NCBI GenBank assembly: GCA_049682815.1
Contig: JBAUII010000079.1
Location: 29,864 to 93,863 of the forward strand
Length of the DNA: 64,000 bases
From: Thermodesulfobacteriota bacterium
Lineage (GTDB): Bacteria; Desulfobacterota_D; UBA1144; Nemesobacterales; CSP1-2
Reading direction: 5' to 3'
How positions within the stretch are numbered: position 1 is the first letter of the stretch; each line of letters starts with the position of its first letter. The translations under genes were made by a program, and so were the position numbers. Below are positions 23,394 to 38,271 of this stretch, piece by piece. Below the pieces are notes generated by a model. The model did no database searches. It was not told the origin of the DNA and saw nothing but the letters and a program-made list of their open reading frames with translations.

Positions 23394-23563
23394 AAGGTGG
23401 ACTACGTTTCAGACCAACATGAGTATTGTCAATAGTTTTTCGATGCAGGGTTTAATTTTTATATGTCGATTTGGTCAGTATATCATGGCGGGTTCAACTT
23501 TCAAGACAAAATTCGGATTTTTGTAACGACTTAGGGGCATTAGAAGCGAAACAACTTTTCCTC

Positions 23564-23592
23564 TTGATGCGCCAGGTAACTTACTTTATAAT
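23564..23592 (+). promoter_or_regulatory. Near-consensus sigma-70 promoter (TTGATG-17 nt-TATAAT)
   Basis: TTGATG at 23564-23569, a 17-nt spacer, TATAAT at 23587-23592. It points into a non-coding region. Confidence 0.5.
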
Positions 23593-23598
23593 TGATTT

Positions 23599-23692
23599 TA
23601 GACTTAACGCTTAAACTTAACGCATTTCATGCGCTATCCTCCTTTAAATTGGGAATGTCTCTAAATCCGGGAGCATTCCCTCTAAAAATTTA
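23599..23692 (+). ncRNA. Candidate small RNA, paralogue A, with AUCCUCCUUUAA anti-SD-like box and terminal hairpin
   Basis: Lies downstream of the promoter above. AAACTTAA box, ATCCTCCTTTAA (23636-23647), hairpin GGGAATGTCTC...GAGCATTCCC (23651-23680), then TCTAAAAATTT. Homologous to 36573-36670. Confidence 0.4.
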
Positions 23693-23717
23693 CAAAATGA
23701 GTTTGCTGAGAATAAAG

Positions 23718-24551
23718 TTACTTTAAACTTAAGTACTTAGAGGGGTTTAGTTTCTTGCCGTTTTTTATTATTTCATAATGCAGGTGTGTCCCAGTGGATC
23801 TTCCAGTGGAGCCTGCGTTACCAATAAGATCGCCACTCTTCACCCTTTGTCCTTCTTTCACATCTACCCTTGTCAAGTGTCCATAAAGTGTCTCGTACCC
23901 ATTTTCATGCTTGATTATTACGGTATTGCCGTAACTATAGTACCAACCTGCTCTTTGGACCAATCCGTCAGCCGTGGCAAATACTGGCTGTCTAGGTTTG
24001 GCTTCGAAGTCTATTCCGGAGTGAAAAGCCGGTCGGGATTTGAACGGATCCTTTCTGTACCCAAACCCCGATCTGATAGCGGTTTGGATCATAGGCCTAC
24101 CCAGGGGATAGCTCTTAATAACATTAAACAACTCATATATATCCTTTTCCATGCTATCAAGATAGGATAATTCCAGTCCGTCGGCCGGAATGTACTCACC
24201 TCCCACGGACAATTCCTTGTTTATGCCTTTTTTGTCAAGTAACTCTTGCATTTCCAAGAGCTTCTTTTCGATTTCTACTAACCTAGATTTCAATACAAGT
24301 TCATCTTTGCTCATTTCGTTTAGGACGTTGGACTGACTCTTCAGTTGGTCGGCCAGTTCTCTTTTCTGATGGGTACTTATTTCAGCTTTCTTGTAAAAAT
24401 TATATGCAATAATGAAAGATAGAAGTGATACCAGCGTGAGTCCAAAAAATGTGATTAGGATTATCTTAATGTGGTAAAGTTTGATGTTAAGGAATTTTGG
24501 TAGTGTGCTTTCAAATTTGAAAAAATGAATTTTATAATTTTCCCGTGTCAT
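23718..24551 (-). CDS. M23 family metallopeptidase (murein DD-endopeptidase-like) with N-terminal TM and coiled coil
   Basis: HSGIDF...HLHYEI LytM/M23 motifs. RBS TAAAGGAGGATGGGTAATG. Confidence 0.85.
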   Translation of the reverse strand: MTRENYKIHFFKFESTLPKFLNIKLYHIKIILITFFGLTLVSLLSFIIAYNFYKKAEISTHQKRELADQLKSQSNVLNEMSKDELVLKSRLVEIEKKLLEMQELLDKKGINKELSVGGEYIPADGLELSYLDSMEKDIYELFNVIKSYPLGRPMIQTAIRSGFGYRKDPFKSRPAFHSGIDFEAKPRQPVFATADGLVQRAGWYYSYGNTVIIKHENGYETLYGHLTRVDVKEGQRVKSGDLIGNAGSTGRSTGTHLHYEIIKNGKKLNPSKYLSLK

Positions 24552-24897
24552 TACCCATCCTCCTTTACAATAAGGTTAATTTATTGACCCATAAAGCGAT
24601 TGATCCTCGGACTGTGCTTGTGATTCTAAAACTTCGGCAAGCAATATAACATATTTTAAAAAAGATTTACAATATCAAATCTAAGAAATTAAAACTTTCC
24701 TCGCGCATAGGTATTTTGCAGGCCATGCATAATGCTTAAAAAAAGAAATTGATTCAAAAAAGGGCCATGCGATGATTCAGACTTCTTTGGAGTTTCTCAT
24801 CTATTACCTTGTGAGGTTTGTTATCGAAAAATTATTCGTATAGAATTGACTCAGGAGCAATTGTGAAAGTCATCTTAAAAATTCTTGAACAGACAAT

Positions 24898-25356
24898 GTG
24901 GGTTTGAAAGTTGATATGGTACTGAAACTCATTATTACTTTCTCATTAGCGATAAAATTTGTCGCCGCCTCAAATGCGGGGGCGCAAATAGTGGTAAGTG
25001 ATGCCTGGATAAGAGAATTACCCCCTGGCCCGTCGGTTACCGCGGGATACATGGTCATTGAAAATCTTGGAAACAATGACGACAAGCTCACAGGGATTAA
25101 TGCTAGCTTCGCGGGGCACGCAGGGATTCATACAACCCAGATCGACAATAATGGAATTGCGCGAACGAATATGATACAGGAACTTGTAATACCAGCAGGC
25201 AAAAAAGTAGTATTGGAACCGGGTGCAACGCATATAATGCTCACTGGCATAACTGAACCAATTAAAAAGGATGACACCATAAAGCTGGAGTTAATGTTTG
25301 AAAGAGCAGGTAGAAAAGAGATTTATGTGAAGGTTAAGGATTTAAGTGGTAATTAG
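24898..25356 (+). CDS. Periplasmic copper chaperone PCu(A)C (DUF461)
   Basis: Signal peptide, then AWIRELPPGPSVTAGYMVIEN...HAGIHT...LEPGATHIMLTGI...FERAG pattern. An alternative ATG lies at 24916. Confidence 0.7.
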   Translation: MGLKVDMVLKLIITFSLAIKFVAASNAGAQIVVSDAWIRELPPGPSVTAGYMVIENLGNNDDKLTGINASFAGHAGIHTTQIDNNGIARTNMIQELVIPAGKKVVLEPGATHIMLTGITEPIKKDDTIKLELMFERAGRKEIYVKVKDLSGN

Positions 25357-25415: not shown

Positions 25416-25465
25416 TGGTGGAGATGAGGGGATTCGAACCCCCGACCTCCGCCTTGCGAAGGCGG
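25416..25465 (-). repeat. att site: displaced 3' 50 nt of tRNA-Ala (direct repeat of 36339-36388)
   Basis: tggtggagatgaggggattcgaacccccgacctccgccttgcgaaggcgg is identical at both positions by direct comparison. The flanking bases differ on both sides. Confidence 0.85.
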
Positions 25466-25487
25466 AAATATTAATCCCTAACTTATT

Positions 25488-26576
25488 CTAACTATTAGCA
25501 ATATTAATAGTGGGTTTATACAGTGTGATTGTATTGTGATTGTTAAAGTTGGGTTCCAGCATTTTTACAGCGTTTTTCTTATGTTCTTGCGAGGGATGAG
25601 TATAGTGTTTCAGCATTCTAATATCTTTATGTCCAGTTATTTCCATTACCGTAATTATATCAACTCCCTTGGTTACCAGATCCGTTATAAAACTATGCCT
25701 TAGATCGTGAGGTCGGTAGTCTTCTAATTCAACTTTATCTAAAACCCTTCTCCAAGCTTTACCTACGGAATCTTTACTACAATAATTAAACACTCTTTCT
25801 TTATCTTTATTTAAGCCACATATAACCTCATGGGCAGTAGAGTTCATGGGTACAGTTCTCTGATTGTAATTCTTAGCATCTCTGATGATCATATGGCCAG
25901 TTTCCAAATCTATATCTGTCCACTTAAGCTTAATCAACTCGCTCACCCTCATTCCTGTATTTCTAGCGACTAAAATAAAGGCCTTAAGCATTATTGGAGC
26001 ATTGTCAGTTATCTTATCAAGCGCATCGTGCGGAATGTATTTTGATTTTCTTTCATATTCCTCTGCGTTCAAAGGCTTTACTTTCTTAACATCAGAAATC
26101 GGGTTATTAGATGACTCCCCCCATCCAATAGCTCGATTAAACATGGAACGAAGTACGTTAAGTTCTCGGTTGATAGTTGATGGTTTAACTCCTTCTTGTT
26201 TTCTTAGAGATTTATATTTTTCAATTTGCCAGGAAGTAATTTGGCTTATGTTCGTATTACCTACAAATTCAAAAAACTTTCTTGTTACATGAGCTTCTCT
26301 TTTATAGCCTTTCTGATTCTCTGTAATCCAATTTAGGTACTTATCTATCAAGTTTTTAAGAGGAATATTCTTCTCGGTTCTCTGCAGTTTATATCTTCCC
26401 TGCACTACCTCACCCATTCTTGCTTTTAGGGCTTGTTCGGCTTGCCCTCTTGTAAATATTCCAACATGTCCTATTCGTTCTTTTATCTGCCTTTTATTGT
26501 TGTAGTATGCGATCCACCAACTATTACCATGTTTGAAGATGCTTCCCATACCTCTTGCTCTTTGTTTACGTGCCAT
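25488..26576 (-). CDS. int: Tyrosine recombinase / phage-type integrase
   Basis: SAM-like N-domain. Catalytic residues in ARNTGMRVSEL (R), HDLRHSF (HxxR) and LKHYTH (Y). Confidence 0.9.
   Translation of the reverse strand: MARKQRARGMGSIFKHGNSWWIAYYNNKRQIKERIGHVGIFTRGQAEQALKARMGEVVQGRYKLQRTEKNIPLKNLIDKYLNWITENQKGYKREAHVTRKFFEFVGNTNISQITSWQIEKYKSLRKQEGVKPSTINRELNVLRSMFNRAIGWGESSNNPISDVKKVKPLNAEEYERKSKYIPHDALDKITDNAPIMLKAFILVARNTGMRVSELIKLKWTDIDLETGHMIIRDAKNYNQRTVPMNSTAHEVICGLNKDKERVFNYCSKDSVGKAWRRVLDKVELEDYRPHDLRHSFITDLVTKGVDIITVMEITGHKDIRMLKHYTHPSQEHKKNAVKMLEPNFNNHNTITLYKPTINIANS
25524..25543 (+). repeat. TGTGATTGTATTGTGATTGT: candidate arm-type recombinase site (left)
   Basis: 18/20 identical, and in direct orientation, to 36193-36212 near the other end of the element. 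The internal unit TGTGATT is repeated twice. It lies inside the int 3' coding end. Confidence 0.35.
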
Positions 26577-26577
26577 T

Positions 26578-26754
26578 TTATTTTACCCCCTTACATTCTC
26601 TTTTTTTTAATAGATCCGCCATTGCTTCACGGACCAACTCCGCCATTGCTCGGCCTTCCTTCTTTGCTACCGCTTTAAGCCTGTCTAATATTTCCTCGTC
26701 TATGTGTAGGTGAAATTGGCCTAATCTTTTTTTTCTCTCTTGACGTTTCTTCAT
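26578..26754 (-). CDS. Ribbon-helix-helix (CopG/Arc-like) protein, 58 aa, immediately upstream of int
   Basis: Below the ORF-track size cut-off; my own translation is MKKRQERKKRLGQFHLHIDEEILDRLKAVAKKEGRAMAELVREAMADLLKKRECKGVK. This is a beta-strand plus two helices RHH pattern. The stop lies 1 nt before the int ATG. Confidence 0.6.
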   Translation of the reverse strand: MKKRQERKKRLGQFHLHIDEEILDRLKAVAKKEGRAMAELVREAMADLLKKRECKGVK

Positions 26755-26814
26755 AATAGATTATTATATACGAAGTAGGTATAATGTCAAATAATAAATC
26801 TATGGAGGTAAATC

Positions 26815-27165
26815 ATGGACAAAAAGACCCAAATAATAACTTTACTAAACGATATAAAACCACCGCTTTTTTTATCACCAATAGACCTTTTCCAACGACT
26901 GGTCATAGACTTATATGTGGAGTTCCGCTACATGTCTGACGATCTCGTAACTGCCGAGGATATGTTTAGAATAGCCTTACCAATTCTAGAGAGTAATATT
27001 ACCGAAGAGGATATTAAGGCATATCAGGAGCTCAAAAAAGACCCCGTAGTATGCCACCTTATGGCTAAATATCCGGTGATTAAAAAAGCTATGAGAAATG
27101 GACGCACATCACAACTCATTTACAACTTCGAGAGAAAAGTTGTTAGAAAGGATGGAGTGAATTGA
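26815..27165 (+). CDS. Hypothetical protein (island)
   Basis: Clean 116-aa ORF with RBS GGAGG at 26802. No motif recognised. Confidence 0.45.
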   Translation: MDKKTQIITLLNDIKPPLFLSPIDLFQRLVIDLYVEFRYMSDDLVTAEDMFRIALPILESNITEEDIKAYQELKKDPVVCHLMAKYPVIKKAMRNGRTSQLIYNFERKVVRKDGVN

Positions 27166-27805
27166 GTATTCGTCCTTGGATAATCAACTTAAAGTAATCA
27201 GATATATTTTGAGCAATTAGAAAAGTACGATCCTGAGAAAGAGTGTCTTTTAATTGTCCAGGCTACCGAGAATACTGATTACCACTTTGCGAAACTATGG
27301 GTTTTCACAAAAAGGGATGGATCAGTTTATAGCATAGAACGTGCCTCCTAAATGTAATGGGATTGCCTATAACAACCTAGATGAAGTAACCTTTCCAGTA
27401 GAAACGTAGATTAATAAAGCTTTACTTACCTTTATTTTAATTTACTATCCTTATTCGATTGCATTCCTATATGGTCGCGTTAGAAAATAAAGAGACAGTA
27501 TGTCCCCCATCATTCTATGCTAGGCTTTCACTGAGATCTTAGTGACGGCATAGGCTAGTCAAAGGGGGTTCATGGGGTTAAGGGGGTTCATATATGTACT
27601 TAACCCTGTTTAAATTCTCAGGGAAAAAATCAGGAAAACAGCAAACAGGGTATATAAGTAACCCTCTTATTCAAAGAAAATGCAGCCACGGCTTGTACAG
27701 AGGCCTTAAAAGGGTATTTATAGACAAGAATTTCTTGCTGGTCTTTGCAAATAAATCTTTCACGGGTCATTCCGCACGATATTCTAATAATGTATACTTT
27801 AATAC

Positions 27806-28096
27806 ATGAAAAGGTTAGCGTTCATTGTTTCATTTTTATTGGTTATGTCAATAGCGGGGGTAGCCAATGCCCAGTACACGATAAATGATGTTTACTGGGA
27901 CAAAGCAAGAGGAGAGTGGATGGTTGATGTTGAACCCTGGCCTCAGCAACCTGTGATAATTGTCCCTAACTACACATACAACGTATTCGTTCCTGCGCCA
28001 CAGTATATACTTCCCGATACTTTTGAAGTGATTATTCAGGAGCCGGTATTTGACGAAAAGCTGCTACGGGGTCTAATGTTGGACTTGCCGTACTGA
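27806..28096 (+). CDS. Hypothetical small secreted protein (island)
   Basis: Signal peptide MKRLAFIVSFLLVMSIAGVANA|QY. 96 aa. Confidence 0.5.
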   Translation: MKRLAFIVSFLLVMSIAGVANAQYTINDVYWDKARGEWMVDVEPWPQQPVIIVPNYTYNVFVPAPQYILPDTFEVIIQEPVFDEKLLRGLMLDLPY

Positions 28097-28145
28097 ATGG
28101 GTGCAAGGTGTTAGTTATTTCTTTGACGTATCGGTAGGTCGCTAG

Positions 28146-28161
28146 GATTTGAGTTGCTTGG
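28146..28161 (+). repeat. 16-nt direct repeat copy 1 (GATTTGAGTTGCTTGG)
   Basis: One of three copies of GATTT(T/G)AGTTGC(T/C)T(G/A)G in the 28100-28580 non-coding region. Confidence 0.5.
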
Positions 28162-28337
28162 CGTAACCAATTGATGTTTTAGGGATAAAGATTTAGTATA
28201 ACTACGTCCCGAGCGTCTCAGGATGCGACAGTGGTTGCTAGTGAATTTTTAGGTATAGATTAAGAGGTTGATAAATGTGTTCCTAGAGGGATTCAATAAG
28301 TTATTTTTTCTCAACCCTTACCTTAGTACCTTTTCTT

Positions 28338-28353
28338 GATTTTAGTTGCTTGG
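28338..28353 (+). repeat. 16-nt direct repeat copy 2 (GATTTTAGTTGCTTGG)
   Basis: See copy 1. Confidence 0.5.
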
Positions 28354-28489
28354 AATCTTTACCAGAGGCCATAGAATCGAAAAATAAGTCAAATTTGATT
28401 TATCCCCTTTGTTCCGATTTCACTACAAAATGTAATGCATATAAAGGAATACCTATATAGGATAAACCTTTACTTCTTTTATCTAGGGT

Positions 28490-28505
28490 GATTTTAGTTG
28501 CCTAG
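28490..28505 (+). repeat. 16-nt direct repeat copy 3 (GATTTTAGTTGCCTAG)
   Basis: See copy 1. Confidence 0.5.
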
Positions 28506-28581
28506 ATAAGGGGTGTAAGGTTGATTATATGCGTTTTCTTTTTCGAGTTCCATAGAAAAAATTGCTTTCCCTTCTCGGATA

Positions 28582-29097
28582 ATGTATTGCCATATACTTA
28601 TGATTGAGAATAACGGATGGCAAGCTAAGCCTAAGAAGAAAAAGGACTCCTACTATAAATCTATGGCTAGAGTCAGAAAGGTAAGGTATAGGCTTTCCAA
28701 AAGTGAAAGGATGGTTTTTGATGTTGAAATTGAACCTGAGTATATCGATTATAGCTTAGAAGATAAGGCGAAGATCAGCGGGTTAAGTTTGAAACGCTAT
28801 AGCGAAGCTTTTAGCAAAATGAACCGGAAACCTACAGTTAAGTTGGCGATTACAATTGGTCTGATCGAGAAAGACTTCACCGGAAATTGGTTTAGAAGGA
28901 TTAATAAATTAATTGCATGGGCTGAAGCTGAGAAGGATTACAAGTATATTTTGATTTTGGAACGAGAAAAGGCTTTGATGCCAAAGCGATTAATAGCCAC
29001 TGGAAGGGTAGCAGGCGAATCTGAGGATGATGGGAAGTCTGAACCTGAATTACCCAAGGATATGCTTCCCGACCTGGAGCGGTGGGGACAACTATAG
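28582..29097 (+). CDS. Hypothetical protein (island cassette gene 1)
   Basis: 171-aa ORF with a basic N-terminus and acidic C-terminus. A possible HTH-like stretch (ISGLSLKRYSEAFSKM) is only a guess. An internal Met (MARVRK) is an alternative start. Confidence 0.45.
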   Translation: MYCHILMIENNGWQAKPKKKKDSYYKSMARVRKVRYRLSKSERMVFDVEIEPEYIDYSLEDKAKISGLSLKRYSEAFSKMNRKPTVKLAITIGLIEKDFTGNWFRRINKLIAWAEAEKDYKYILILEREKALMPKRLIATGRVAGESEDDGKSEPELPKDMLPDLERWGQL

Positions 29098-29121
29098 TAA
29101 GTAAATTTTTAAGGAGATAGT

Positions 29122-29757
29122 ATGCCGATAAGAACATTTGATTATCGTACAGATGAAGAAAGAACGGAGCGAAATAAGATGACTTTGGAAGAGCTAGTCA
29201 GGGCAAGCACAGGCGGTCTAGGTCTAGATTCGCTCGAGGATTTTAAAAAAGCTATTGCAAGAACAGGTAAAGTTCCCATCGGTGTTTTTAATCCTGAGCT
29301 TAGACGAATAGGCATGGAGCATCTGAGCCAATATAGGGGTGGTACACCTACAAGAGCGGAATTTCCTGTTTCCAAGATAGCACAAGGTGGAGGCGAAGGA
29401 CTTAAGACATTATTGGAAGCTGCTGCTATAGGTTCAGGCAACTTAGAGAACATATCAGCTATGTTAATACCCAAATTGGGTATAGGATCTATTAATGCCT
29501 TGCGTTCCACTACGGGGTTTCTACCCATTGAACTTAGCCCTAATAGATTCACGCCAGGCGGTTTCACACAAAAGATAGATTTGGGTGCAGGCCAGAGCGG
29601 GTTCGTATTTGGACGGCAGGCAGATTTGGACTTGGCTAGAAACATGTTACAACGAAAGCAGGCACAGTTGGAATTACAGACAGGGCAGAGGAAGAGGCGA
29701 TTTGGCAAACCTCAAAAAACTTCATTAATAGCACAGTATTTAGCACAGCAGGGATAG
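29122..29757 (+). CDS. Hypothetical Gly-rich protein (island cassette gene 2)
   Basis: 211-aa ORF with RBS AAGGAG at 29111. No motif recognised. The antisense ORF 29142..29708 is judged spurious. Confidence 0.45.
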   Translation: MPIRTFDYRTDEERTERNKMTLEELVRASTGGLGLDSLEDFKKAIARTGKVPIGVFNPELRRIGMEHLSQYRGGTPTRAEFPVSKIAQGGGEGLKTLLEAAAIGSGNLENISAMLIPKLGIGSINALRSTTGFLPIELSPNRFTPGGFTQKIDLGAGQSGFVFGRQADLDLARNMLQRKQAQLELQTGQRKRRFGKPQKTSLIAQYLAQQG

Positions 29758-29758
29758 T

Positions 29759-30136
29759 ATGGCCGATAATTTGACTGATTATACAACTGAAGAGAAAATA
29801 GATGTTATAGCTGATTTTGCCAATATTGACTCTGAAAGGATTAATGACATGATTCTAAATTATGCCTCTATGTGCGTCAATGAAATAATGCCTCAAGATT
29901 GTACTGTCCGCTTCGACAAAGACTTTGTTAAACTCACTATACTTGCTTATGAGACTGCACTCGATTGTTGGTTTAAGCTGTTAGACGACTACGATGGAGA
30001 TAAAGAGAGTGGAGAAGGCTTAGAACCGCATTCAATAAATGATCAACTTTACAGCTTTAATCAACAGATTCTCCAAGCGTTTTTTGAAAGGGTAAAAGAG
30101 GAAATGAGTGAAAGCACCCTTGAGAAGCTAAACTAA
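29759..30136 (+). CDS. Hypothetical acidic protein (island cassette gene 3)
   Basis: 125-aa ORF. Its ATG lies 1 nt after the previous stop, suggesting translational coupling. Confidence 0.45.
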   Translation: MADNLTDYTTEEKIDVIADFANIDSERINDMILNYASMCVNEIMPQDCTVRFDKDFVKLTILAYETALDCWFKLLDDYDGDKESGEGLEPHSINDQLYSFNQQILQAFFERVKEEMSESTLEKLN

Positions 30137-30179
30137 TTAAGATTTATCTACGGTGTAAAAGATTGCTTTACATTGATAA

Positions 30180-30281
30180 TTATTCTCTCCAATCCCGCCC
30201 TGTAAGATGTCTCCTTATATCATAGACACAGAGAGTAATCACAATTAGACATACTGTTTGAACAAGTAGAATTTTCTCCAT
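30180..30281 (-). CDS. Candidate 33-aa hydrophobic peptide (type I toxin-like / small membrane protein)
   Basis: My own translation is MEKILLVQTVCLIVITLCVYDIRRHLTGRDWRE. It is preceded by AGGAGGAT with a 5-nt spacer and by a TATAAT about 25 nt upstream on the minus strand. It lies antisense between two + strand genes. Confidence 0.35.
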   Translation of the reverse strand: MEKILLVQTVCLIVITLCVYDIRRHLTGRDWRE

Positions 30282-30414
30282 ACTATATCCTCCTATTTTA
30301 AGCTAATTATAATTCCTTATTTAATTTATTGATATTATTGGGATTTGGATTTAATTATTGAACTGGCATGTCAGAGACAATATAATTAGGGTAACAGCTC
30401 AAGTGGGGGGAAAA

Positions 30415-31272
30415 ATGAGGCTAGGACATATAGTCCCGCTTATCTTAATAATATTTATCCCTATTTCGTTACAAGCAAAGGATGTTTATAAATGCGCTGA
30501 CAAGAACGGCAACTTTTATTACAGCACTACAATCTGCCCAGGTGGGGAGAAAAAATCTAAGCCAAATGTAATTAACACACCGTCCCAGTTAGATCAGGGA
30601 AAAACTGTAAATAAAGAAGGGGGTGATATGCCACGGTCAAAGACTATACTTGAAGATAGCCCAGAACCTTCCGATTCAAAAAATAAAATTGCTAGTGAGA
30701 TTGACGCCATAAATGCAAAAATAAAAGAACGCCAAAAGATGATGAGATTTTACGATACTAAGCAGTGTTACCAGACCTCACCACCTAATAGTGGAAGAGA
30801 AATTATCTGTGATCATACAAACAGCAAGTACCAAGCATATGCTTTGGAAATAGCAGAGTTACTCCGCTATCGTGATCAGCTCTTATTTATTCTTAATTCT
30901 GATCCGCTACAGCTTCAAAATAGAAAATTTCCCTGTCAAGTTACACAAGTTATTGATGGCGATACCTTCGACTGTATTTTACCCAATGGAGTAGAAGACA
31001 GAGTTCGATTAATTGGAGTTGATGCACCGGAATCTGGGACGACTCATGGAGATTTGGCAACCGCATATTTACAATCCTATTTAATCCCGAACACTAGTGT
31101 AACTTTGGAATTGGATGCTGAGCCTAGAGACAAATACGGACGCATACTTGCATATGTTTTTTTGGCTGATGGTACTATGATTAATGCTTTACTAGTTCAA
31201 GAAGGATATGCTACTGTAGACATATACCCGCCGAATGACAAATATGAATCCTATTTAATTAATGCTCAATGA
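30415..31272 (+). CDS. Secreted thermonuclease (SNase/micrococcal nuclease fold) with DUF4124-like N-domain
   Basis: Signal peptide from Met 30415 (MRLGHIVPLILIIFIPISLQA). DVYKCADKNGNFYYS (DUF4124-like). C-terminal VIDGDTFDC...VRLIGVDAPE...GRILAYVFL...NALLVQEGYA. Confidence 0.75.
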   Translation: MRLGHIVPLILIIFIPISLQAKDVYKCADKNGNFYYSTTICPGGEKKSKPNVINTPSQLDQGKTVNKEGGDMPRSKTILEDSPEPSDSKNKIASEIDAINAKIKERQKMMRFYDTKQCYQTSPPNSGREIICDHTNSKYQAYALEIAELLRYRDQLLFILNSDPLQLQNRKFPCQVTQVIDGDTFDCILPNGVEDRVRLIGVDAPESGTTHGDLATAYLQSYLIPNTSVTLELDAEPRDKYGRILAYVFLADGTMINALLVQEGYATVDIYPPNDKYESYLINAQ

Positions 31273-31280
31273 GTAGCCTT

Positions 31281-31514
31281 TCACCTATCAATCCATTCAC
31301 GTAATTCACCGTTTGCTTTCATTCTGATTATGAGTTCTTCCAGTCCCTCTGATATAGAAATATACCCTCCGCAACTCTCAACAATACCTTCCAGGGTGAT
31401 TTTGTACTTATCACAGTTAAGCCGCTCCCTATCCTCAGAGAAGGTTAAGTAAAAGCATTTAATACATAGCCCTTGCAATACAAGCTCTTTAATCTGATCG
31501 CTGTTGTTGTTCAT
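31281..31514 (-). CDS. Hypothetical protein (island)
   Basis: 77-aa ORF downstream of the primase gene on the same strand. Confidence 0.4.
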   Translation of the reverse strand: MNNNSDQIKELVLQGLCIKCFYLTFSEDRERLNCDKYKITLEGIVESCGGYISISEGLEELIIRMKANGELREWIDR

Positions 31515-31709
31515 ATGTCTCTTTTACTCGTTTGAAATTCTCACATTCAGGGGTAATGATATTGATTATGAGTTTTCCATTACTACTCCTTGTTTCGGTC
31601 TTATAGGTATCATCACTTATCTTTTGTATAGGTGTTGTCTTGTCCCCATTCGCCTCAGAAAATATTTTCTTTCCATTTTCGTTGACTAATTGACTAATGG
31701 GGTCACTAT

Positions 31710-34241
31710 CTAATGATTTAGGGGAGTTATATTCAAATAGTGAGTCATGACTAATCTCTGACTTATCTTGACTAATGTTTCGGCCTTAACTTCCTGTAAT
31801 GATGCACTTTTTTTTAGAAAAGTGGTATTAGTCAATGAGTCAGACTTTTCAAGTAATAATTTTTTTAACGCTTCGGGAGTTGGGAGTTTAAGTATCTCTT
31901 GGGGTATAGAAATAAACTTATATTTGCTCTTTATCCCCTTTTCGCCATTATGCTCCAAATACCCTGAATCAGCTAAAGCATAAACCTCGGTTCTAAAGGT
32001 TGTGTTGACTTTGCAATTGCATAGTTTTGCTAATTCGCTCATTGAAATCTCATCCTCTGGATGTTGCTCTTTTATCTTTTGCAGGATTTTTTCTTGTTGG
32101 GGTGTAATCTCTTTTAGGGTCTGAGACAATACCACAGTTGCTAATTCATAAGCGGTCTTATAGTCCTCAATGGTTGCCTCAAGATAGGTTTTGCCATCTA
32201 CCTCTGATTTTTCTCTCTGTTCTTGATGTAAGAGACAATGAGCTTTAATGAGATTCTCAAATCTCGTAAAATCACGTCTGCACCTAACTTTATCTACCGG
32301 AAAAGTATCCGCTAGTATTCCAAGATAGGGTACAAAAACGTCATAGGATCTTAGTAGTAACTGTAGGGCTTGATACGGCCTATTCTCCTTATCAATCATT
32401 TCGTTATTAATGGGTATTGCTTTTGATTGAAGTATTTCTCGACTCTGTTCATTGGATTCATCTATATATAAATCAAATAGCCTAGTTTGATTTTCAGGGT
32501 TTATTTGGGACTTGGTCGTAGTTTCAACATAGGTCAGTCCCCTTGCGGGGATAAATATCTCTTTTGCCTCAAAACTTCCAGTTTTCGGGTTTGGTTCTGT
32601 CACTAATTTGCTAAGTTCACCCTCTGAGATTGATGAACGAATAGGGTAATCAGCTTTCTCAGAACCATGAGATTCATATATCACAAGTATTGTATGGGAT
32701 AGGTCTAATCCTGGAAGCCTATAAAGTGCCTGAGACGATACATCCGTATATGCCCTATACACACTTTTGGGGAATACCTTTAATACGGCTTTTACTAATG
32801 CACTCTTACCGCTAGAGGATTTACCCTTGACTACATTTGAGATTGCTTCATCAAATAATCTTGAGGTAAAAGACAAAACTAGCACTCTTTTGTTTACTTT
32901 TTCGCCTATATAACCATTTCTACCTATTTGCTCTACAATCTTGTTTAATAGGTCAGGGTCTCCTAACAATTCCCTTGCTTTCCCTATTTCATCGTCTGTA
33001 TATTCGCTTAAAGGGTCGTATGGTTTCTGATCTTCTTTTGTTGTTTCAACTTCATTACATATGGCTTTTAAGTCGCTCTGTAATCCCCTCGTGCCTATCT
33101 CATGTTTCTTTGAAAGTTTGTTAATCCAGGTTTCCTTGTGGCTTGCAAGTTCCAGCTTGCTAATCTCTTTTAGTGCCTCTGGTATATCTTCATTCTCTAT
33201 AACTGCATACAGGTAATATGTGGCCTCATTTATACCTTTCTCAATTATTTCTCTAAACTTGTCAATGCCGTATTTAACTAAAAGTTCATCAAAATCCTCT
33301 TTGTAGCCTGTGTTTAGAATATATCCCCTAAATTCTTTTGCTAAGGGATAAGAAGCCTTATTGCCCGCTTCGTCTGAATCAAACGCCACGTACTTTTTAG
33401 CCTTAGATTTTAAAAGTTCATCCCTTGCGTGTTCGCCTAGATTAGTTCCTAATAATGCACAGGTATTAAACCCCGCTTTATCAAGAGCTACAGCGTCAAA
33501 TACCCCCTCCACAATGCAGCAATCATTCTTGTTTAGATTCTCTGATAGATATATTTGTTTCCGTATCAAGTCAGAGTTTCTAAGGTGTAAATACTTAGGG
33601 TTATTCTCTGTTATCGTATTATCAGGGGATGCTCTGCCGGTTAGATAGACAGCCTTTCCATGCTTCAGTATAGGGATAATTATTCTATTTCTGAAATGGT
33701 CGTAATAGCTTCCATTATTGCCTTTATTGATTAGTCCTACATCTTCAGCTATCTCTATGTCGGTTTGATCTTTTAGATTAGTGGCTACAGGGTTATTATC
33801 TCCTACATACCCTATTGAATGACGGTCAATATCGCTTTCATCTAAGCCTTTAGCCCTTAAAAATTCGATTACTTCAGGATGTTTCTTTATCTTCTTATTG
33901 GCATGGGCTGTAAATCTTTCTATTAGCTCATATGCCCGTAACTGTCTATCGAATCTCTCTTTCTCCTTAGGGGAAACTTCAGGCAAAGGTACATAATATT
34001 CCTTTGCTAATGATAGAGCAGCATCTAGGGGTGATAATCCCTTGTGACTGGCTTCCAAATCTATGATATCGGCACGTTTACGACAAACGAAACAATATCC
34101 ATGCGTACCATAGTTATGGAGTGAAGGGTTATGGTCGTCATGGAAAGGGCAGGTATCTTTCTTGCTACCATTAAATATTCCCCTATCGTTGCAATACCTT
34201 TCAAATGGTATAGCTTCTTTGACATTTTCAAATATTGACAT
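31710..34241 (-). CDS. DNA primase (CHC2 zinc finger + Toprim) fused to a P-loop NTPase domain (replication initiator of the element)
   Basis: CPFHDDHNPSLH...GYCFVCRKRADIIDL (CHC2). CCIVEGVFDAVAL...AFDSDEAGNKA (Toprim). Walker A GKSSSGKSALV in the C-terminal half. 843 aa. Confidence 0.8.
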   Translation of the reverse strand: MSIFENVKEAIPFERYCNDRGIFNGSKKDTCPFHDDHNPSLHNYGTHGYCFVCRKRADIIDLEASHKGLSPLDAALSLAKEYYVPLPEVSPKEKERFDRQLRAYELIERFTAHANKKIKKHPEVIEFLRAKGLDESDIDRHSIGYVGDNNPVATNLKDQTDIEIAEDVGLINKGNNGSYYDHFRNRIIIPILKHGKAVYLTGRASPDNTITENNPKYLHLRNSDLIRKQIYLSENLNKNDCCIVEGVFDAVALDKAGFNTCALLGTNLGEHARDELLKSKAKKYVAFDSDEAGNKASYPLAKEFRGYILNTGYKEDFDELLVKYGIDKFREIIEKGINEATYYLYAVIENEDIPEALKEISKLELASHKETWINKLSKKHEIGTRGLQSDLKAICNEVETTKEDQKPYDPLSEYTDDEIGKARELLGDPDLLNKIVEQIGRNGYIGEKVNKRVLVLSFTSRLFDEAISNVVKGKSSSGKSALVKAVLKVFPKSVYRAYTDVSSQALYRLPGLDLSHTILVIYESHGSEKADYPIRSSISEGELSKLVTEPNPKTGSFEAKEIFIPARGLTYVETTTKSQINPENQTRLFDLYIDESNEQSREILQSKAIPINNEMIDKENRPYQALQLLLRSYDVFVPYLGILADTFPVDKVRCRRDFTRFENLIKAHCLLHQEQREKSEVDGKTYLEATIEDYKTAYELATVVLSQTLKEITPQQEKILQKIKEQHPEDEISMSELAKLCNCKVNTTFRTEVYALADSGYLEHNGEKGIKSKYKFISIPQEILKLPTPEALKKLLLEKSDSLTNTTFLKKSASLQEVKAETLVKISQRLVMTHYLNITPLNH

Positions 34242-34243
34242 GT

Positions 34244-34447
34244 TTATTCCTTTGGTTCCCAGTTCCTAAAATCCCAATGTTTATTGTACGCTTCTAGCAT
34301 TATTTGCATTCTAAGGGTTTGAACATCAACGCCCTTTTTAGATGCAATTCTATATAGCAGTCTTGACAGTCTAGGGTTGCACATTGGGCACTCACTCTTA
34401 GATTTATGGTGGAAATTACCCTTAGGGTAAGTTAAAATATTGGTCAT
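34244..34447 (-). CDS. Hypothetical protein (island), stop 2 nt before the primase start
   Basis: 67-aa ORF containing CPMC. Tightly packed with the primase gene. Confidence 0.4.
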   Translation of the reverse strand: MTNILTYPKGNFHHKSKSECPMCNPRLSRLLYRIASKKGVDVQTLRMQIMLEAYNKHWDFRNWEPKE

Positions 34448-34475
34448 CGCAACATCTCCTATTTTTAAAGTTTCG

Positions 34476-34507
34476 CCCTGACTAGACTCACCTAGTCAGG
34501 GTTTTTT
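34476..34507 (+). terminator. Perfect 10-bp stem-loop with T-tract on the + strand
   Basis: CCCTGACTAG-actcac-CTAGTCAGGG-TTTTTTA. It lies between two minus-strand genes, but the U-tract is on the + strand only. Confidence 0.4.
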
Positions 34508-34518
34508 ATTGCCCTTTT

Positions 34519-34713
34519 TCAATACGGATCAATCGTTTTTTCGTCGATCATTTTCATGAGTTTATCGTATGGCACGTACACGTTGTGCCCGATTTTCAAT
34601 CTTGGGAGCTGGCCAAGAAATATTCGTTTTCGGACTGCTCCTTGGGGGATACCAAGCAGACTCGCAACTTCCGGAATCCTTAACAGCTTCGGGATTTTTC
34701 TTGTTTTATACAT
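34519..34713 (-). CDS. Excisionase-family / AlpA-like helix-turn-helix DNA-binding protein
   Basis: LLRIPEVASLLGIPQGAVRKRIFLGQLPRLKIGHNVYV matches the HTH_17-type pattern. 64 aa. Confidence 0.65.
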   Translation of the reverse strand: MYKTRKIPKLLRIPEVASLLGIPQGAVRKRIFLGQLPRLKIGHNVYVPYDKLMKMIDEKTIDPY

Positions 34714-34883
34714 TTTACTACTCCTCGATTCTAATGTGTTCTACTTGCATGTATAACGGGAAGTGCACATGACGAAATAAAAAAGCGGTAAATAAAGACT
34801 GTTAGAGATTTATCTTCTTTTAAGAAATTGGGGATTTGCTAGGGTGGAAATTTTATAGGAAGGGCCGTCAGTGGCTCTTAGTA

Positions 34884-36170
34884 TTAAATAGTTTCGTCAG
34901 TTTCTTCATAGTCTTCTTTATCAACTAATTTAGGAAACTGATTCTTGCTTGAATTTCTAAGTCGGTTAACCAATTCATGACGTGTTGCCATTTTCAGGTA
35001 CTTTTTTAGATTATTTATGCTTTTAATTTTTTCTAAGGGGATAACCGGTATTACGTTTTGGACAAGGTGGATGGTTAACTCGCTTATCCAATCATTTTCC
35101 TCTTGGAAGCTGATCCATCTCTTACCTATCGCCCCTCTTACAACTTGTTGAGCGGTTTTTTCTTTCATTAGCCATTTAAGATTTTCGCTATCACTATCTC
35201 CGATTTCTACTGCAAAGGTCTTATCGATATTTGGGCATCGCTTTTTTACCTCCAGACTCATACCTAAGCCTTTGGGGTATTTTTTCATTAGCTTCCATTT
35301 CTCCCAAATTGGTAATTTTAATATATGGACTTTTTCACTCGGGAGTTTGAGGTTGCTGAAAATTGTATTTTCGTCTATTTCTCCACTTTCGAGGAAGGTA
35401 TATCGAAAAATGAAGTTGCCGGTAAGTTTAGCCAATTTAACTCTTGCATCAGTTAATGATTCCATCATTGAAAATTCAGCAAACGCATTTTTTTCTATAG
35501 CCCACGTTAGCCTATTTTTTAGTTTTAGCTTCACAGCCCGTAGTTTTCCCTGTTTTATCCATTTATAAATTGTTTGACGTCTGTTTGATTTGATTTTTCT
35601 AATAGGTTTTGTATCTGCTAATAGCTTCCAGGGACCTAAGTTGTCGTTTTCTTCAGTTTTAACGAAGTTTAGAAGCCCTAAGACCTGTGGAATTGTCAAC
35701 AACTTCCCTTTACTGAAAAGGGACTCTGCATTTCTTTTTACGTATTCGACTCGGATTTTGTAATAAGTCTTCGGACATAGAGCCTCAATAAGGTCATACT
35801 CAATAAATCGACATTCTGGCAATTTTTTTATCCCACGCTCATATAGATTGAAAGCCGAATTGATTTCCGAATACTTCCTTAGCAATTCATTGCGAATCTT
35901 CCTAACTCTCTTATAATAACTCTTAGGGTTCTTCTCTTCATATTTTTTGCCACCAGCTAATTCAGAAATCTTCTCGGAGTCCCACCCCTTCAATATTTCA
36001 ATTATATTTTTAGCTTCTTGCCTAAAATCGACTTGGACTTTTTTAATAAACGTATCTTCTGGACTCGTTTTAAGATAATGACCAGCAATTATTCTAAACG
36101 GTCGGTAGGCAAATCTTTTAAGAAACTGGATTCGACGTTTAGTAGTCTCTAGTTTACTTTCTTGATCCAA
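34884..36170 (-). CDS. Hypothetical 428-aa protein (island) with an internal HTH-like segment
   Basis: RRQTIYKWIKQGKLRAVKL resembles an excisionase/MerR-type HTH. Nothing else recognised. Confidence 0.4.
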   Translation of the reverse strand: MDQESKLETTKRRIQFLKRFAYRPFRIIAGHYLKTSPEDTFIKKVQVDFRQEAKNIIEILKGWDSEKISELAGGKKYEEKNPKSYYKRVRKIRNELLRKYSEINSAFNLYERGIKKLPECRFIEYDLIEALCPKTYYKIRVEYVKRNAESLFSKGKLLTIPQVLGLLNFVKTEENDNLGPWKLLADTKPIRKIKSNRRQTIYKWIKQGKLRAVKLKLKNRLTWAIEKNAFAEFSMMESLTDARVKLAKLTGNFIFRYTFLESGEIDENTIFSNLKLPSEKVHILKLPIWEKWKLMKKYPKGLGMSLEVKKRCPNIDKTFAVEIGDSDSENLKWLMKEKTAQQVVRGAIGKRWISFQEENDWISELTIHLVQNVIPVIPLEKIKSINNLKKYLKMATRHELVNRLRNSSKNQFPKLVDKEDYEETDETI

Positions 36171-36192
36171 AACGATTAATCCTTACGCTAAT

Positions 36193-36212
36193 TGTGATTA
36201 TAATGTGATTGT
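36193..36212 (+). repeat. TGTGATTATAATGTGATTGT: candidate arm-type recombinase site (right)
   Basis: 18/20 identical to 25524-25543 in the same orientation. It lies about 125 bp inside the tRNA-proximal att repeat. Confidence 0.35.
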
Positions 36213-36338
36213 AAAACAGAAATTTACTGAATACAAACGCACGGAGCTGAACAGTTCCCGAACAAGAAGGCCTTATTGATAATTGGTACAACTACCTGAA
36301 ATTAAATACAAAATCCTTTAGTGCTTGTGGCTTATAAG

Positions 36339-36415
36339 TGGTGGAGATGAGGGGATTCGAACCCCCGACCTCCGCCTTGCGAAGGCGGCGCTCTCCCAAA
36401 CTGAGCTACATCCCC
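36339..36415 (-). tRNA. tRNA-Ala (anticodon CGC), CCA encoded
   Basis: GGGGATG-TA-GCTC-AGTTTGGGA-GAGC-G-CCGCC-TTCGCAA-GGCGG-AGGTC-GGGGG-TTCGAAT-CCCCT-CATCTCC-A-CCA. The G3:U70 alanine identity pair is present. Confidence 0.9.
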
Positions 36416-36537
36416 ACTTTTTGTGAGACAAACATTCGGTTTCTCTGTACATTAAACATGGCCAACTGGAAATTTTATCTAAAATTACCAAAAAATACTA
36501 ACCAAAACTAAATTAATTAATTAAATTAAAAAACCAC

Positions 36538-36566
36538 TTGACAACTTAAGTAAATTGCTTTATATT
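36538..36566 (+). promoter_or_regulatory. Near-consensus sigma-70 promoter (TTGACA-17 nt-TATATT) with A/T-rich upstream tract
   Basis: TTGACA at 36538-36543, a 17-nt spacer, TATATT at 36561-36566. Upstream sequence is aaattaattaattaaattaaaaaa. Confidence 0.55.
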
Positions 36567-36572
36567 AATAAT

Positions 36573-36670
36573 TGTAGTTAATTTGAAAACTTAAATCATC
36601 CTCCATCCTCCTTTAAGATAGTGGGAATGTTTCTAAGTCCTTTAGATCACTCCCACTTTTCTTTTTTATT
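36573..36670 (+). ncRNA. Candidate small RNA, paralogue B, with tandem CCUCC boxes and an intrinsic terminator
   Basis: AAACTTAA box. CATCCTCCATCCTCCTTTAAG (36597-36617). Hairpin GTGGGAATGTTTCTAAG-TCC-TTTAGATCACTCCCAC (36621-36656) followed by TTTTCTTTTTTATT. Confidence 0.5.
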
Positions 36671-36783
36671 CCACTTATTATCTTGGTAGAGAATTTACGT
36701 CGTAATTATTGACGAGAGTACGTCTGAAATTGATTCATTTCACCATGTTCCGAGTGAATTGATTTAAATGTCGCCTTGAGGGT

Positions 36784-38271
36784 TCACTTTGATGCTGCTA
36801 CTGCTCGATCTGATGCCCATCTCTCTAGTCTCGAAATCTCCTCCCGCATCGTTGTAGAGAGTGGAACTATAGAAGACGCTGCGATTATAAGTTCTCTGTC
36901 ATCCAATTCCTTTTGTTTTGAATAGGCTTCAAAAAGGGCGGATACCACGACCTGTTCAATCTCTGAACCGGAAAGTCCTTCGGTGTTCTTGGCAAGGGAA
37001 TCTAAATCGAAGGAGTCGGGATCCTTATGGCGGTTGACAATGTGAATTCGGAATATCTCTTTTCGATCTATTTTTGACGGAAGGGATACGAAAAAGATCT
37101 CATCGAACCTGCCCTTTCTCAAGATCTCCGGCGGTAGCAGGTCAATTTGATTTGCAGTGGCGGCTATAAATACGGGGTGTTTCTTTTCTTGCATCCAGGT
37201 AAGAAAAGAGCCGAATATCCTCGATGCAGGACTATCGCCTGTTTTCTCCCCGCTCCTTGTGATCCCGGCCTCGATTTCGTCTATCCATAGCACGCAGGGA
37301 GAAATTCTCTCAACGGTCTTGATTGTGTTTCGAAAGGCTTCTTCGGGTGTTCCAAACACACCGCTATAAAGTTGATTTAGGTCGAGCCGCAATAACGGTA
37401 AATTCCAAACTGAAGCGACGGCCTTAGCACATAGGCTCTTACCACAACCGCTTATTCCCATTATTAGTAATCCCTTGGGCATGTCAAGCCCATATTTCCT
37501 GCCATCCGAGCCAAATGCTAATGCCCGTGTTTTGAGCCATTCCTTTAGATTTTCCAGGCCGCCGATGTCATCCAAGCCCACTCTAGCTCTTACGTATTCC
37601 AGTGTTCCGGTTCTGTTTATCAAGAGAGCCTTCTCATCCATGAGGGATGTAACGATCTCTTCTTCACCTTTTTCTTCTCCATCCAGGAGGATCCTCCTTA
37701 GAGCAAATTTCATTTCGGAAGATCCAAGGCCCTGCAAAGCGTGAACGCATTTTTCCCTGAACTCAGGGGTATAATGATTTTGACGGCTGCTATCTTTAAA
37801 TGGAGCTGTGACTTCGTCAAATATCATCCTGGCATCATCTACATCTGGAAGTCCAATTTCGAATATGGTTATTTCCTTTTCTAATTCAGGTGGGAGGACT
37901 GCAGATGGGGAAATGATGAACAGGGTTTTAGAGCTACTTTTCAGAGTTTGATGTAGGTCCTTCAATTCCCTTATTATCTTTGGGTCTTTAAGAAAAAAGT
38001 GAAGGTCCTTAAAAAGAAAGAATCCCTTTTGATTGGTCTCCCGAACTTGTTTCAAGGCGCTTAAGGCGTCGTTGATTCCTTCTGATACCCCATTTCCTCC
38101 GCTAAACCCGTTGGTACAGGACCAGGAGTATACACTATATTCATCATGAAACGACTCCTTCGAAAGCAGTCTCAACGACTCCTCGACACGTTCTTCTTCC
38201 CAACTAATAAGGTAGATAAGTGGATATTCAGCCCTTATGCAACTTGCTATTTTGTCGGATGGAAATGCCAT
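36784..38271 (-). CDS. AAA+ ATPase (Ycf46-like architecture: about 230-aa N-domain + single AAA module)
   Basis: Walker A GISGCGKS, Walker B VLWIDEIE, second region of homology ATANQIDLLPPEILRKGRFDE. Confidence 0.7.
   Translation of the reverse strand: MAFPSDKIASCIRAEYPLIYLISWEEERVEESLRLLSKESFHDEYSVYSWSCTNGFSGGNGVSEGINDALSALKQVRETNQKGFFLFKDLHFFLKDPKIIRELKDLHQTLKSSSKTLFIISPSAVLPPELEKEITIFEIGLPDVDDARMIFDEVTAPFKDSSRQNHYTPEFREKCVHALQGLGSSEMKFALRRILLDGEEKGEEEIVTSLMDEKALLINRTGTLEYVRARVGLDDIGGLENLKEWLKTRALAFGSDGRKYGLDMPKGLLIMGISGCGKSLCAKAVASVWNLPLLRLDLNQLYSGVFGTPEEAFRNTIKTVERISPCVLWIDEIEAGITRSGEKTGDSPASRIFGSFLTWMQEKKHPVFIAATANQIDLLPPEILRKGRFDEIFFVSLPSKIDRKEIFRIHIVNRHKDPDSFDLDSLAKNTEGLSGSEIEQVVVSALFEAYSKQKELDDRELIIAASSIVPLSTTMREEISRLERWASDRAVAASK

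Follow-up and report, generated by a model that had tools for sequence, protein, structure and literature searches.

In Sinorhizobium meliloti, the trans-acting small RNA (sRNA) alpha-r14/NfeR1, which is proposed to block initiation by pairing with Shine-Dalgarno (SD) regions, carries an ultraconserved anti-SD motif, CCUCCUCCC, which is repeated in unpaired regions, and the stems vary (PMC10746234). The CiaR-dependent small RNAs (csRNAs, ccnA-E) of Streptococcus are intergenic, multi-copy and defined by a promoter and a terminator, with predicted lengths of 51-202 nucleotides (nt); they have an unpaired region complementary to the SD sequence and the AUG (CAU in 53/61) and are thought to block initiation (PMC3091779). 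Here we describe an element at positions 36538-36670 (copy B) of a 64,000-nt stretch of DNA from a Thermodesulfobacteriota bacterium, referred to throughout as the window, together with its paralogue in the same window (copy A). Judged by sequence comparison, copy B belongs to a previously undescribed sRNA family of a known functional kind, found across Candidatus Dadabacteria. In the Firmicutes, RsaE/RoxS and other sRNAs with C-rich motifs are distributed order- or phylum-wide, and their unpaired C-rich motifs pair with many SD sequences. No Rfam 15 model matched the window at the gathering threshold; with E values up to 10 only tRNA and noise appeared, with nothing relevant at 36300-36900, and 20 diverse family members gave nothing at E up to 1. 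A literature search found no description of the motif, nor of any Dadabacteria sRNA or regulatory RNA.

Architecture, conservation and strand of the predicted gene

The plus strand of the window at 36538-36670 very probably holds a real sRNA gene. The gene would have a housekeeping-type promoter and an intrinsic terminator, both its own, and would yield an RNA of about 96 nt in which an A/U-rich and largely unstructured 5' part is followed by a single-stranded box and then by the terminator hairpin. The features of copy B are as follows.

36505..36537, plus strand: A/T-rich UP-element-like tract (sequence reading; the A/T run itself is 36505-36535)
36538..36543, plus strand: -35 hexamer TTGACA (promoter scan; TTGA[CT] in 108/108 listed family members)
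36544..36560, plus strand: promoter spacer of 17 nt with a conserved TTAAGTA...(T/G)C motif, here containing the palindrome ACTTAAGT
36561..36566, plus strand: -10 hexamer TATATT (promoter scan; kept in the close relatives L001 and L004)
36573..36668, plus strand: predicted sRNA copy B, about 96 nt (start assumed about 7 nt past the -10, end in the U-tract)
36574..36596, plus strand: A/U-rich 5' part with conserved UUAA and ACUUAA, without conserved structure
36597..36617, plus strand: unpaired CU box CAUCCUCCAUCCUCCUUUAAG, unique in the window
36620..36657, plus strand: terminator hairpin (AGUGGGA.UG..UCUAA / UUAGA.CA.UCCCACU), with one A·C mismatch in copy B
36657..36670, plus strand: U-tract UUUUCUUUUUUAUU (sequence reading)

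The initial annotation had read a TTGACA-17-TATATT promoter with an A/T-rich UP-like tract, two CCUCC boxes and a long hairpin followed by a T-run as an independent plus-strand sRNA gene. Each of these elements is present as located, the hairpin and T-run spanning 36620-36670, and the comparative data on promoter, box, U-tract and covariation support the gene it predicted. In a promoter scan the promoter matches the consensus at 11/12 positions. The DNA form of the CU box, CATCCTCCATCCTCCTTTAAG, had 0 matches in 100 shuffles; within it, CCUCC box 1 occupies 36600-36604 and box 2 occupies 36607-36611, AU precedes each box, and CAU (anti-AUG) precedes box 1. The hairpin has an energy of -14.4 kcal/mol alone and -16.8 kcal/mol with the extension 36615-36663, the stretch 3' of it reads TTTTCTTTTTTATT, and the fold z-score of copy B is about -2.6.

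What makes these signals significant is that about 110 relatives conserve them. When metagenomes were scanned with the 20-nt box, at least 120 stretches came back, of which about 108 were distinct once duplicates and two chance matches had been removed; L013, L014, L017, L105 and L116 matched the pattern by chance, lacked the family architecture and were dropped. The distinct sequences, at least about 108 from metagenomes and from Candidatus Dadabacteria or Thermodesulfobacteriota metagenome-assembled genomes (MAGs), have one layout in common, which reads from 5' to 3': A-rich tract, CTTGACA, 16-17 nt, TAT(A/T)TT, 38-50 nt, UCAUCCUCCAUCCUCCUUUAAG, hairpin, T-rich tail. The -35 element is present in every listed member, with CTTGACA at least 80% conserved and an A-rich stretch (aAAata) 5-10 nt 5' of it in the family consensus, and the -10 consensus, CTTTAttTT, stands at the same spacing as in copy B. 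The spacer consensus is TtAAGtaaaaTaC, the TTAA and CTT columns of the 5' part are at least 90% conserved in the family alignment, and the nucleotides 5' of the box vary (A, U or G before UCAU). Predicted RNA lengths among the listed members have a median of 96 nt and range from 86 to 117 nt, and T-rich tails follow the hairpin throughout the family.

A scan of GTDB genomes used a pattern of box 2 and the hairpin start only, with box 1 left out, and found nine true members, all from Dadabacteria-type MAGs. Box 1 was exact in 8/8 members that were not of the copy A type, the ninth being a copy A orthologue. Both boxes were likewise exact in L140 and L142, each found solely by synteny, the former with an AAA homologue (71% identity) and the latter with a HemL homologue (74% identity). 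These eight genome-scan members, L140 and L142, all with the exact box, are evidence of its conservation that is independent of the search pattern. The box was exact in every canonical member recovered, and the housekeeping proteins of the lineages are only ~57-74% identical. Hundreds of homologues of the AAA ATPase itself carry the label Candidatus Dadabacteria or Thermodesulfobacteriota. Contigs L001-L006, in which the AAA homologue is 84-96% identical, keep the order LeuA, AAA, element, tRNA-Ala; the DNA from the AAA stop codon to the hairpin diverges freely, and the segment from the U-tract through hairpin and box to the -10 and -35 is almost invariant. Across deep divergence the 16-17-nt promoter spacing is conserved and the flanks are not.

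Between sublineages the hairpin sequences are wholly different (GUGGGAAUG/CAUUCCCAC, ACGGGAGUACUUC/GAAGUACUCCCGU, AGAGGAAGCAA/UUGCUUCCUCU and others), and the pairing is kept. RNAalifold, applied to 109 sequences, predicts the terminator hairpin only, and 13/13 of its pairs show double compensatory changes. Standard pairs fill 91% of hairpin cells, compared with 41-57% after a shift of the partners by 1-3 columns; cells changed on both sides number 336, compared with 34-84 after such a shift, and 0/500 shuffles attain the observed pairing values. Compensation is also visible between close relatives, in which an inner-stem change replaces CTAAA/TTTAG with CTAAT/ATTAG. No pairs are predicted in the A/U-rich 5' part or, in the consensus, over the box, where the unpaired probability has a mean of 0.89 and a minimum of 0.56 over 108 members. 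Two further structures, a hairpin in the 5' part and a CUUAAA/UUUAAG stem around the box, were considered and rejected, because RNAalifold predicts no such pairs and the CTTAT and CTTAC variants are uncompensated.

Some observations weigh against reading copy B as an sRNA gene. The 2-kb region contains 4 promoter-like sites where 4.3 are expected, which is no excess, and a simple terminator scan of that region left the interrupted stem unflagged. The signals of copy B are thus not beyond chance within the window, and the case is decided by comparison with relatives. In the metagenome set the invariance of the 20-nt box is partly circular, because the box was the search pattern. Copy B is also an exception in its own family, in that a T-to-C change has produced an A·C mismatch on the plus strand and a G·U pair on the minus strand; L012, a close relative of copy B, has the canonical stem CATTCCCAC.

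This exception bears on which strand is functional. If the minus strand were, the hairpin would terminate or stabilise the AAA mRNA, and AAAGGAGGAUGGAGGAUG would be a strong SD for a mini-ORF (open reading frame) or start-stop upstream of tRNA-Ala. Such an SD and mini-ORF do exist, as the initial annotation had noted while holding them less likely (ATG ATT TAA in copy B, MKCVKFKR in copy A), and in both copies the SD-to-ATG spacing is an ideal 7 nt; the element lies 115 nt past the AAA stop codon, and the minus strand gives the copy B hairpin the lower energy (-23.0 vs -17.6 kcal/mol), one G·U replacing the A·C. The family as a whole speaks for the other strand. On the plus strand there are 124 G·U/U·G cells vs 40 A·C/C·A cells; 79/108 members have the more stable hairpin region on the plus strand and 25/108 on the minus strand, and mean energies are -24.7 (plus) vs -21.7 kcal/mol (minus); in L009, UUCC/GGGG is closed by a GAAA loop on the plus strand. 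Because of this family-wide wobble asymmetry and these folding energies, the RNA is assigned to the plus strand of the window. It is also on that strand that the U-tract and the -35/-10 are conserved; the minus-strand sequence past the hairpin is AUCUUAAAGG and not a U-tract, the mini-ORF lacks conservation, having 2 codons in B and 8 in A, and meets stops in the family consensus, and most members have no convergent gene to terminate. The minus-strand SD and mini-ORF, and an AAA terminator, were accordingly rejected, and we regard a functional minus strand as very improbable.

The genes next to the element were examined for a relationship in cis. The nearest downstream gene is co-directional in 72/106 members, often 40-140 nt past the element, and therefore the hairpin is not, in general, the terminator of a convergent gene. 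The same arrangement would suit a 5' leader or attenuator of the downstream gene, with a conditional terminator and the CU box involved in sensing, and SCO1-like, lipoprotein, TrhO, SLT and TadA genes recur in that position. Against a leader, the genes downstream either come from six or more unrelated families or are convergent, as they are for both copies in the window. The TrhO gene, in the one inter-region inspected, has its own promoter (TTGAAA-17-TATAAT) between the sRNA terminator and the gene; the downstream start regions of the examples inspected have no complementarity to the box; and the family has no conserved antiterminator or other alternative structure, its 5' part being predicted to be unpaired. 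A cis-acting leader was rejected on these grounds and seems improbable to us.

A dispersed repeat or miniature mobile element, instead of a gene, might explain two copies in 64 kb, both beside tRNA genes, as well as the tandem copies on some contigs. A family hidden Markov model (HMM) search of the window, however, found copies A and B only and no further divergent copies, and relatives carry the element at syntenic positions. Reading the flanks revealed neither terminal inverted repeats nor target duplications, a dedicated repeat search not having been made, and no family copy was found in IMG/VR viral contigs. The conserved parts are exactly the promoter, the single-stranded box and the covarying terminator, and a repeat is extremely improbable. 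The sRNA family is chromosomal.

Duplicate sRNA genes, tandem or close together, were seen in L020 (5688, 6040), L069 (3351, 3624), L054 (438, 1326) and L071 (2858, 5603), with identical boxes and small differences in promoter or stem; the sRNA gene is therefore present more than once in some genomes. L015 (CAZWVA010000017.1) is binned as Spirochaetia and L018 (JBLNAE010000077.1) as Ignavibacteriales, and their sRNA genes are nearly identical to Dadabacteria ones; these are probably mis-binned contigs rather than cases of horizontal spread. L076, a divergent subfamily, was placed in a Candidatus Dadabacteria MAG by 100% protein identity. Spread beyond Dadabacteria was rejected on the strength of these contigs.

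Possible pairing partners of the CU box

The near-invariant box repeats the anti-SD core CCUCC twice (AUCCUCC-AUCCUCC), and its reverse complement, CUUAAAGGAGG-AUGGAGG-AUG, is an idealised start region with an SD, 7 nt and an AUG. We consider it reasonably likely, by analogy with alpha-r14/NfeR1 and the csRNAs, that the sRNA acts by anti-SD base-pairing. In trans, the exposed box would pair with mRNAs that have strong extended sites (UAAAGGAGGAU...), at their SD region and, depending on the register, at the AUG, and this pairing would compete with the 30S subunit and lower translation, mRNA stability or both.

One candidate target lies in the window:

24555..24567, minus strand: ribosome binding site (RBS) of the M23 peptidase gene (UAAAGGAGGAUGG), no more than a candidate target, with complementarity to the CU box over 13 nt

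The initial annotation had pointed to this 13-nt match, which is indeed exact (CCATCCTCCTTTA; BLAST E = 0.17), although it is weak evidence alone because both sequences are Shine-Dalgarno-like. In a duplex scan the M23 start region pairs with the box at -25.9 kcal/mol, within the top 1% of 858 ORF starts, and nine M23 orthologues among those listed fall in the top 5% of 858 ORF starts. M23 peptidase orthologues were found in 21 loci, always convergent with the sRNA gene and 0.6-1.8 kb downstream, sometimes with SCO1 between. Synteny is thus kept and extended complementarity is not, and M23 was rejected as a conserved specific target. It is a candidate rather than an established target, because most M23 orthologue start regions have only GGAGG in common.

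Anti-SD pairing as the mechanism has points against it as well. Extended complementarity to M23 is kept solely in the window clade and in L008, and specificity is unexplained because CCUCC would pair with most RBSs of these genomes. Invariance over more than 20 nt exceeds the typical need of a seed and could point to a protein or ribosome partner.

The last point leads to an explanation that accepts the same RNA gene and gives the box another role, in which it would mimic the 16S 3' tail (CCUCCUUU plus flanks) as a decoy or ligand, or would throttle SD-led translation globally and non-specifically. The partner might be a KH-domain GTPase of the Era type, an RNase that matures the 16S 3' end, or a toxin. 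The binding site of Era on 16S rRNA is GAUCACCUCC. The box has CCUCCUUU in common with what we take to be the usual bacterial 16S 3' tail, a general sequence and not one from these genomes, and the family loci retrieved contained no 16S rRNA. Invariance over at least 20 nt despite the divergence of housekeeping proteins goes beyond usual seed pairing and would suit such a mimic, as would the strong consensus housekeeping promoter, which fits an abundant RNA, and the fact that no conserved specific target emerged. The variable nucleotides 5' of the box do not suit it, since GAUCA of the 16S tail is not reproduced, and known exposed anti-SD RNAs act via base pairing (PMC10746234, PMC3091779). 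On balance a decoy, ligand or throttle of this kind is rather unlikely. In its broadest form, it would be an abundant, constitutive, lineage-wide 16S-tail mimic that throttles all SD-led initiation or decoys a 16S 3'-end factor (an Era-like GTPase, a maturation RNase or a ribosome-targeting toxin), which we hold to be unlikely; if true, the RNA would be a housekeeping-type RNA specific to Dadabacteria and not an ordinary stress-responsive regulator.

Copy A, the history of the pair and the surrounding DNA

The paralogue of copy B is located as follows:

23564..23690, plus strand: copy A, with TTGATG-17-TATAAT, a single CCUCC at 23638-23642, a hairpin at 23651-23680 and no U-tract

Copy A matches copy B at ~23556-23699 with 69% identity over 115 nt. 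The family HMM scores copy B at 114.9 bits (36520-36668) and copy A at 52.3 bits, which bears out the initial annotation in calling copy B the strongest; copy A, however, is a decaying or diverged paralogue and not an equal partner. Its -35 is weakened in the window (TTGATG). The A copies of the copy-B clade have a decayed box 1 (CAUCCUCU, CAUCCUUU, CAUGCGCU) and no U-tract, and their hairpin is still compensated; the copy A orthologues L004:8646-8773 and L016:5899-6052 have lost box 1 likewise. Without a terminator tail, a copy A transcript could extend into the convergent M23 gene and lie antisense to its 3' end.

Copy A lies between the M23 peptidase gene and tRNA-Met, apparently the ancestral locus because the sRNA also adjoins tRNA-Met in L008 and L009. 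The AAA/tRNA-Ala locus of copy B is occupied down to 71% AAA identity (L140) and is empty in the complete genome L139 (62% AAA identity), whose sRNA is at the SCO1/M23 locus (L010). By this comparison of loci, copy B is the intact paralogue at a clade-specific second locus, and the pair in the window is read as the record of an sRNA gene duplication followed by decay or divergence of the ancestral copy. A niche common to both copies, where a minus-strand gene ends on one side and a minus-strand tRNA gene lies on the other, had been proposed for the window; it describes both copies and many members of the family, but not all.

The M23 neighbourhood in the window extends over 23718-25356. Copper-chaperone genes are found near the sRNA: SCO1 stands between sRNA and M23 in several clades, and PCu(A)C is encoded at window positions 24898-25356.

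Copy B lies, as initially described, between an island-bearing tRNA-Ala gene and a convergent AAA+ ATPase gene. The latter is a 495-amino-acid minus-strand ORF ending at 36784; tRNA-Ala(CGC), at 36339-36415 on the minus strand, encodes its own CCA end. An island of ~10.9 kb (25416-36388) is integrated at this tRNA gene, and the 50-bp att repeat at 25416-25465 is identical to the 3' part of tRNA-Ala at 36339-36388. Its minus-strand genes include those for a tyrosine integrase (25488-26576) and a DnaG/Toprim-type primase (31710-34241), and it also codes for an SNase-like protein (30358-31272) and HTH_17 proteins; several further ORFs have no family match, and the relative L004 lacks the island.

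About 120 nt of A/T-rich DNA (36416-36537), moderately conserved in relatives, separates tRNA-Ala from the sRNA promoter. The tract at 36505..36537 may also serve the tRNA-Ala promoter, so that the divergent tRNA-Ala and sRNA promoters may share this A/T-rich DNA. The conserved motif in the 17-nt spacer is a possible operator. Besides this motif, TTAA at about +8 and ACTTAA just 5' of the box are kept family-wide, and weak, dyad-like reverse-strand matches to the family HMM cover the promoter and 5' region. Taken together, the conserved spacer, TTAA and ACTTAA and the weak reverse-strand matches suggest a dyad-symmetric operator for some regulator.

Comparison with described anti-SD RNAs

Dadabacteria are uncultivated, and the sRNA family is held across the whole lineage; few sRNAs retain a single-stranded seed as long as 20 nt. 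The family offers a sequence marker and a covariance-model seed for annotating Dadabacteria genomes, and a concrete hypothesis, namely post-transcriptional control of strongly SD-led genes, with the neighbouring cell-wall M23 peptidase as one candidate.

Among described sRNAs with C-rich motifs, RsaE/RoxS differs in structure, has CCCC/UCCC in hairpin loops instead of CCUCC in tandem, and is regulated by Rex/ResD/SrrAB. Its Rfam model has no match in the Dadabacteria sRNA, and neither has that of the csRNAs. The csRNAs resemble the Dadabacteria sRNA in leaving both CAU and an anti-SD sequence unpaired, the Dadabacteria box reading CAU-CCUCC. They differ in that two stem-loops flank the unpaired region and the CiaR promoter has TTTAAG-N5-TTTAAG for a -35 (PMC3091779), whereas the Dadabacteria sRNA combines a consensus TTGACA -35 with a duplicated box and lacks a 5' stem-loop.

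The likeness to alpha-r14 (Rfam ar14) takes in an exposed and repeated anti-SD motif, stems that differ, a promoter and terminator of its own, and several paralogues per genome. In alpha-r14, however, three motifs lie in three hairpin loops, whereas in the Dadabacteria sRNA two CCUCC stand in tandem in one linear single-stranded stretch and the sole conserved hairpin is the terminator. The former belongs to the Alphaproteobacteria (Rhizobiales) and the latter to Dadabacteria, and there is no sequence or model similarity between them. By these comparisons of sequence and models, the Dadabacteria sRNA is assigned to neither the alpha-r14 nor the csRNA family, and it appears to be an independent example of the anti-SD sRNA design, beside alpha-r14 of the Rhizobiales and the csRNAs of the streptococci.

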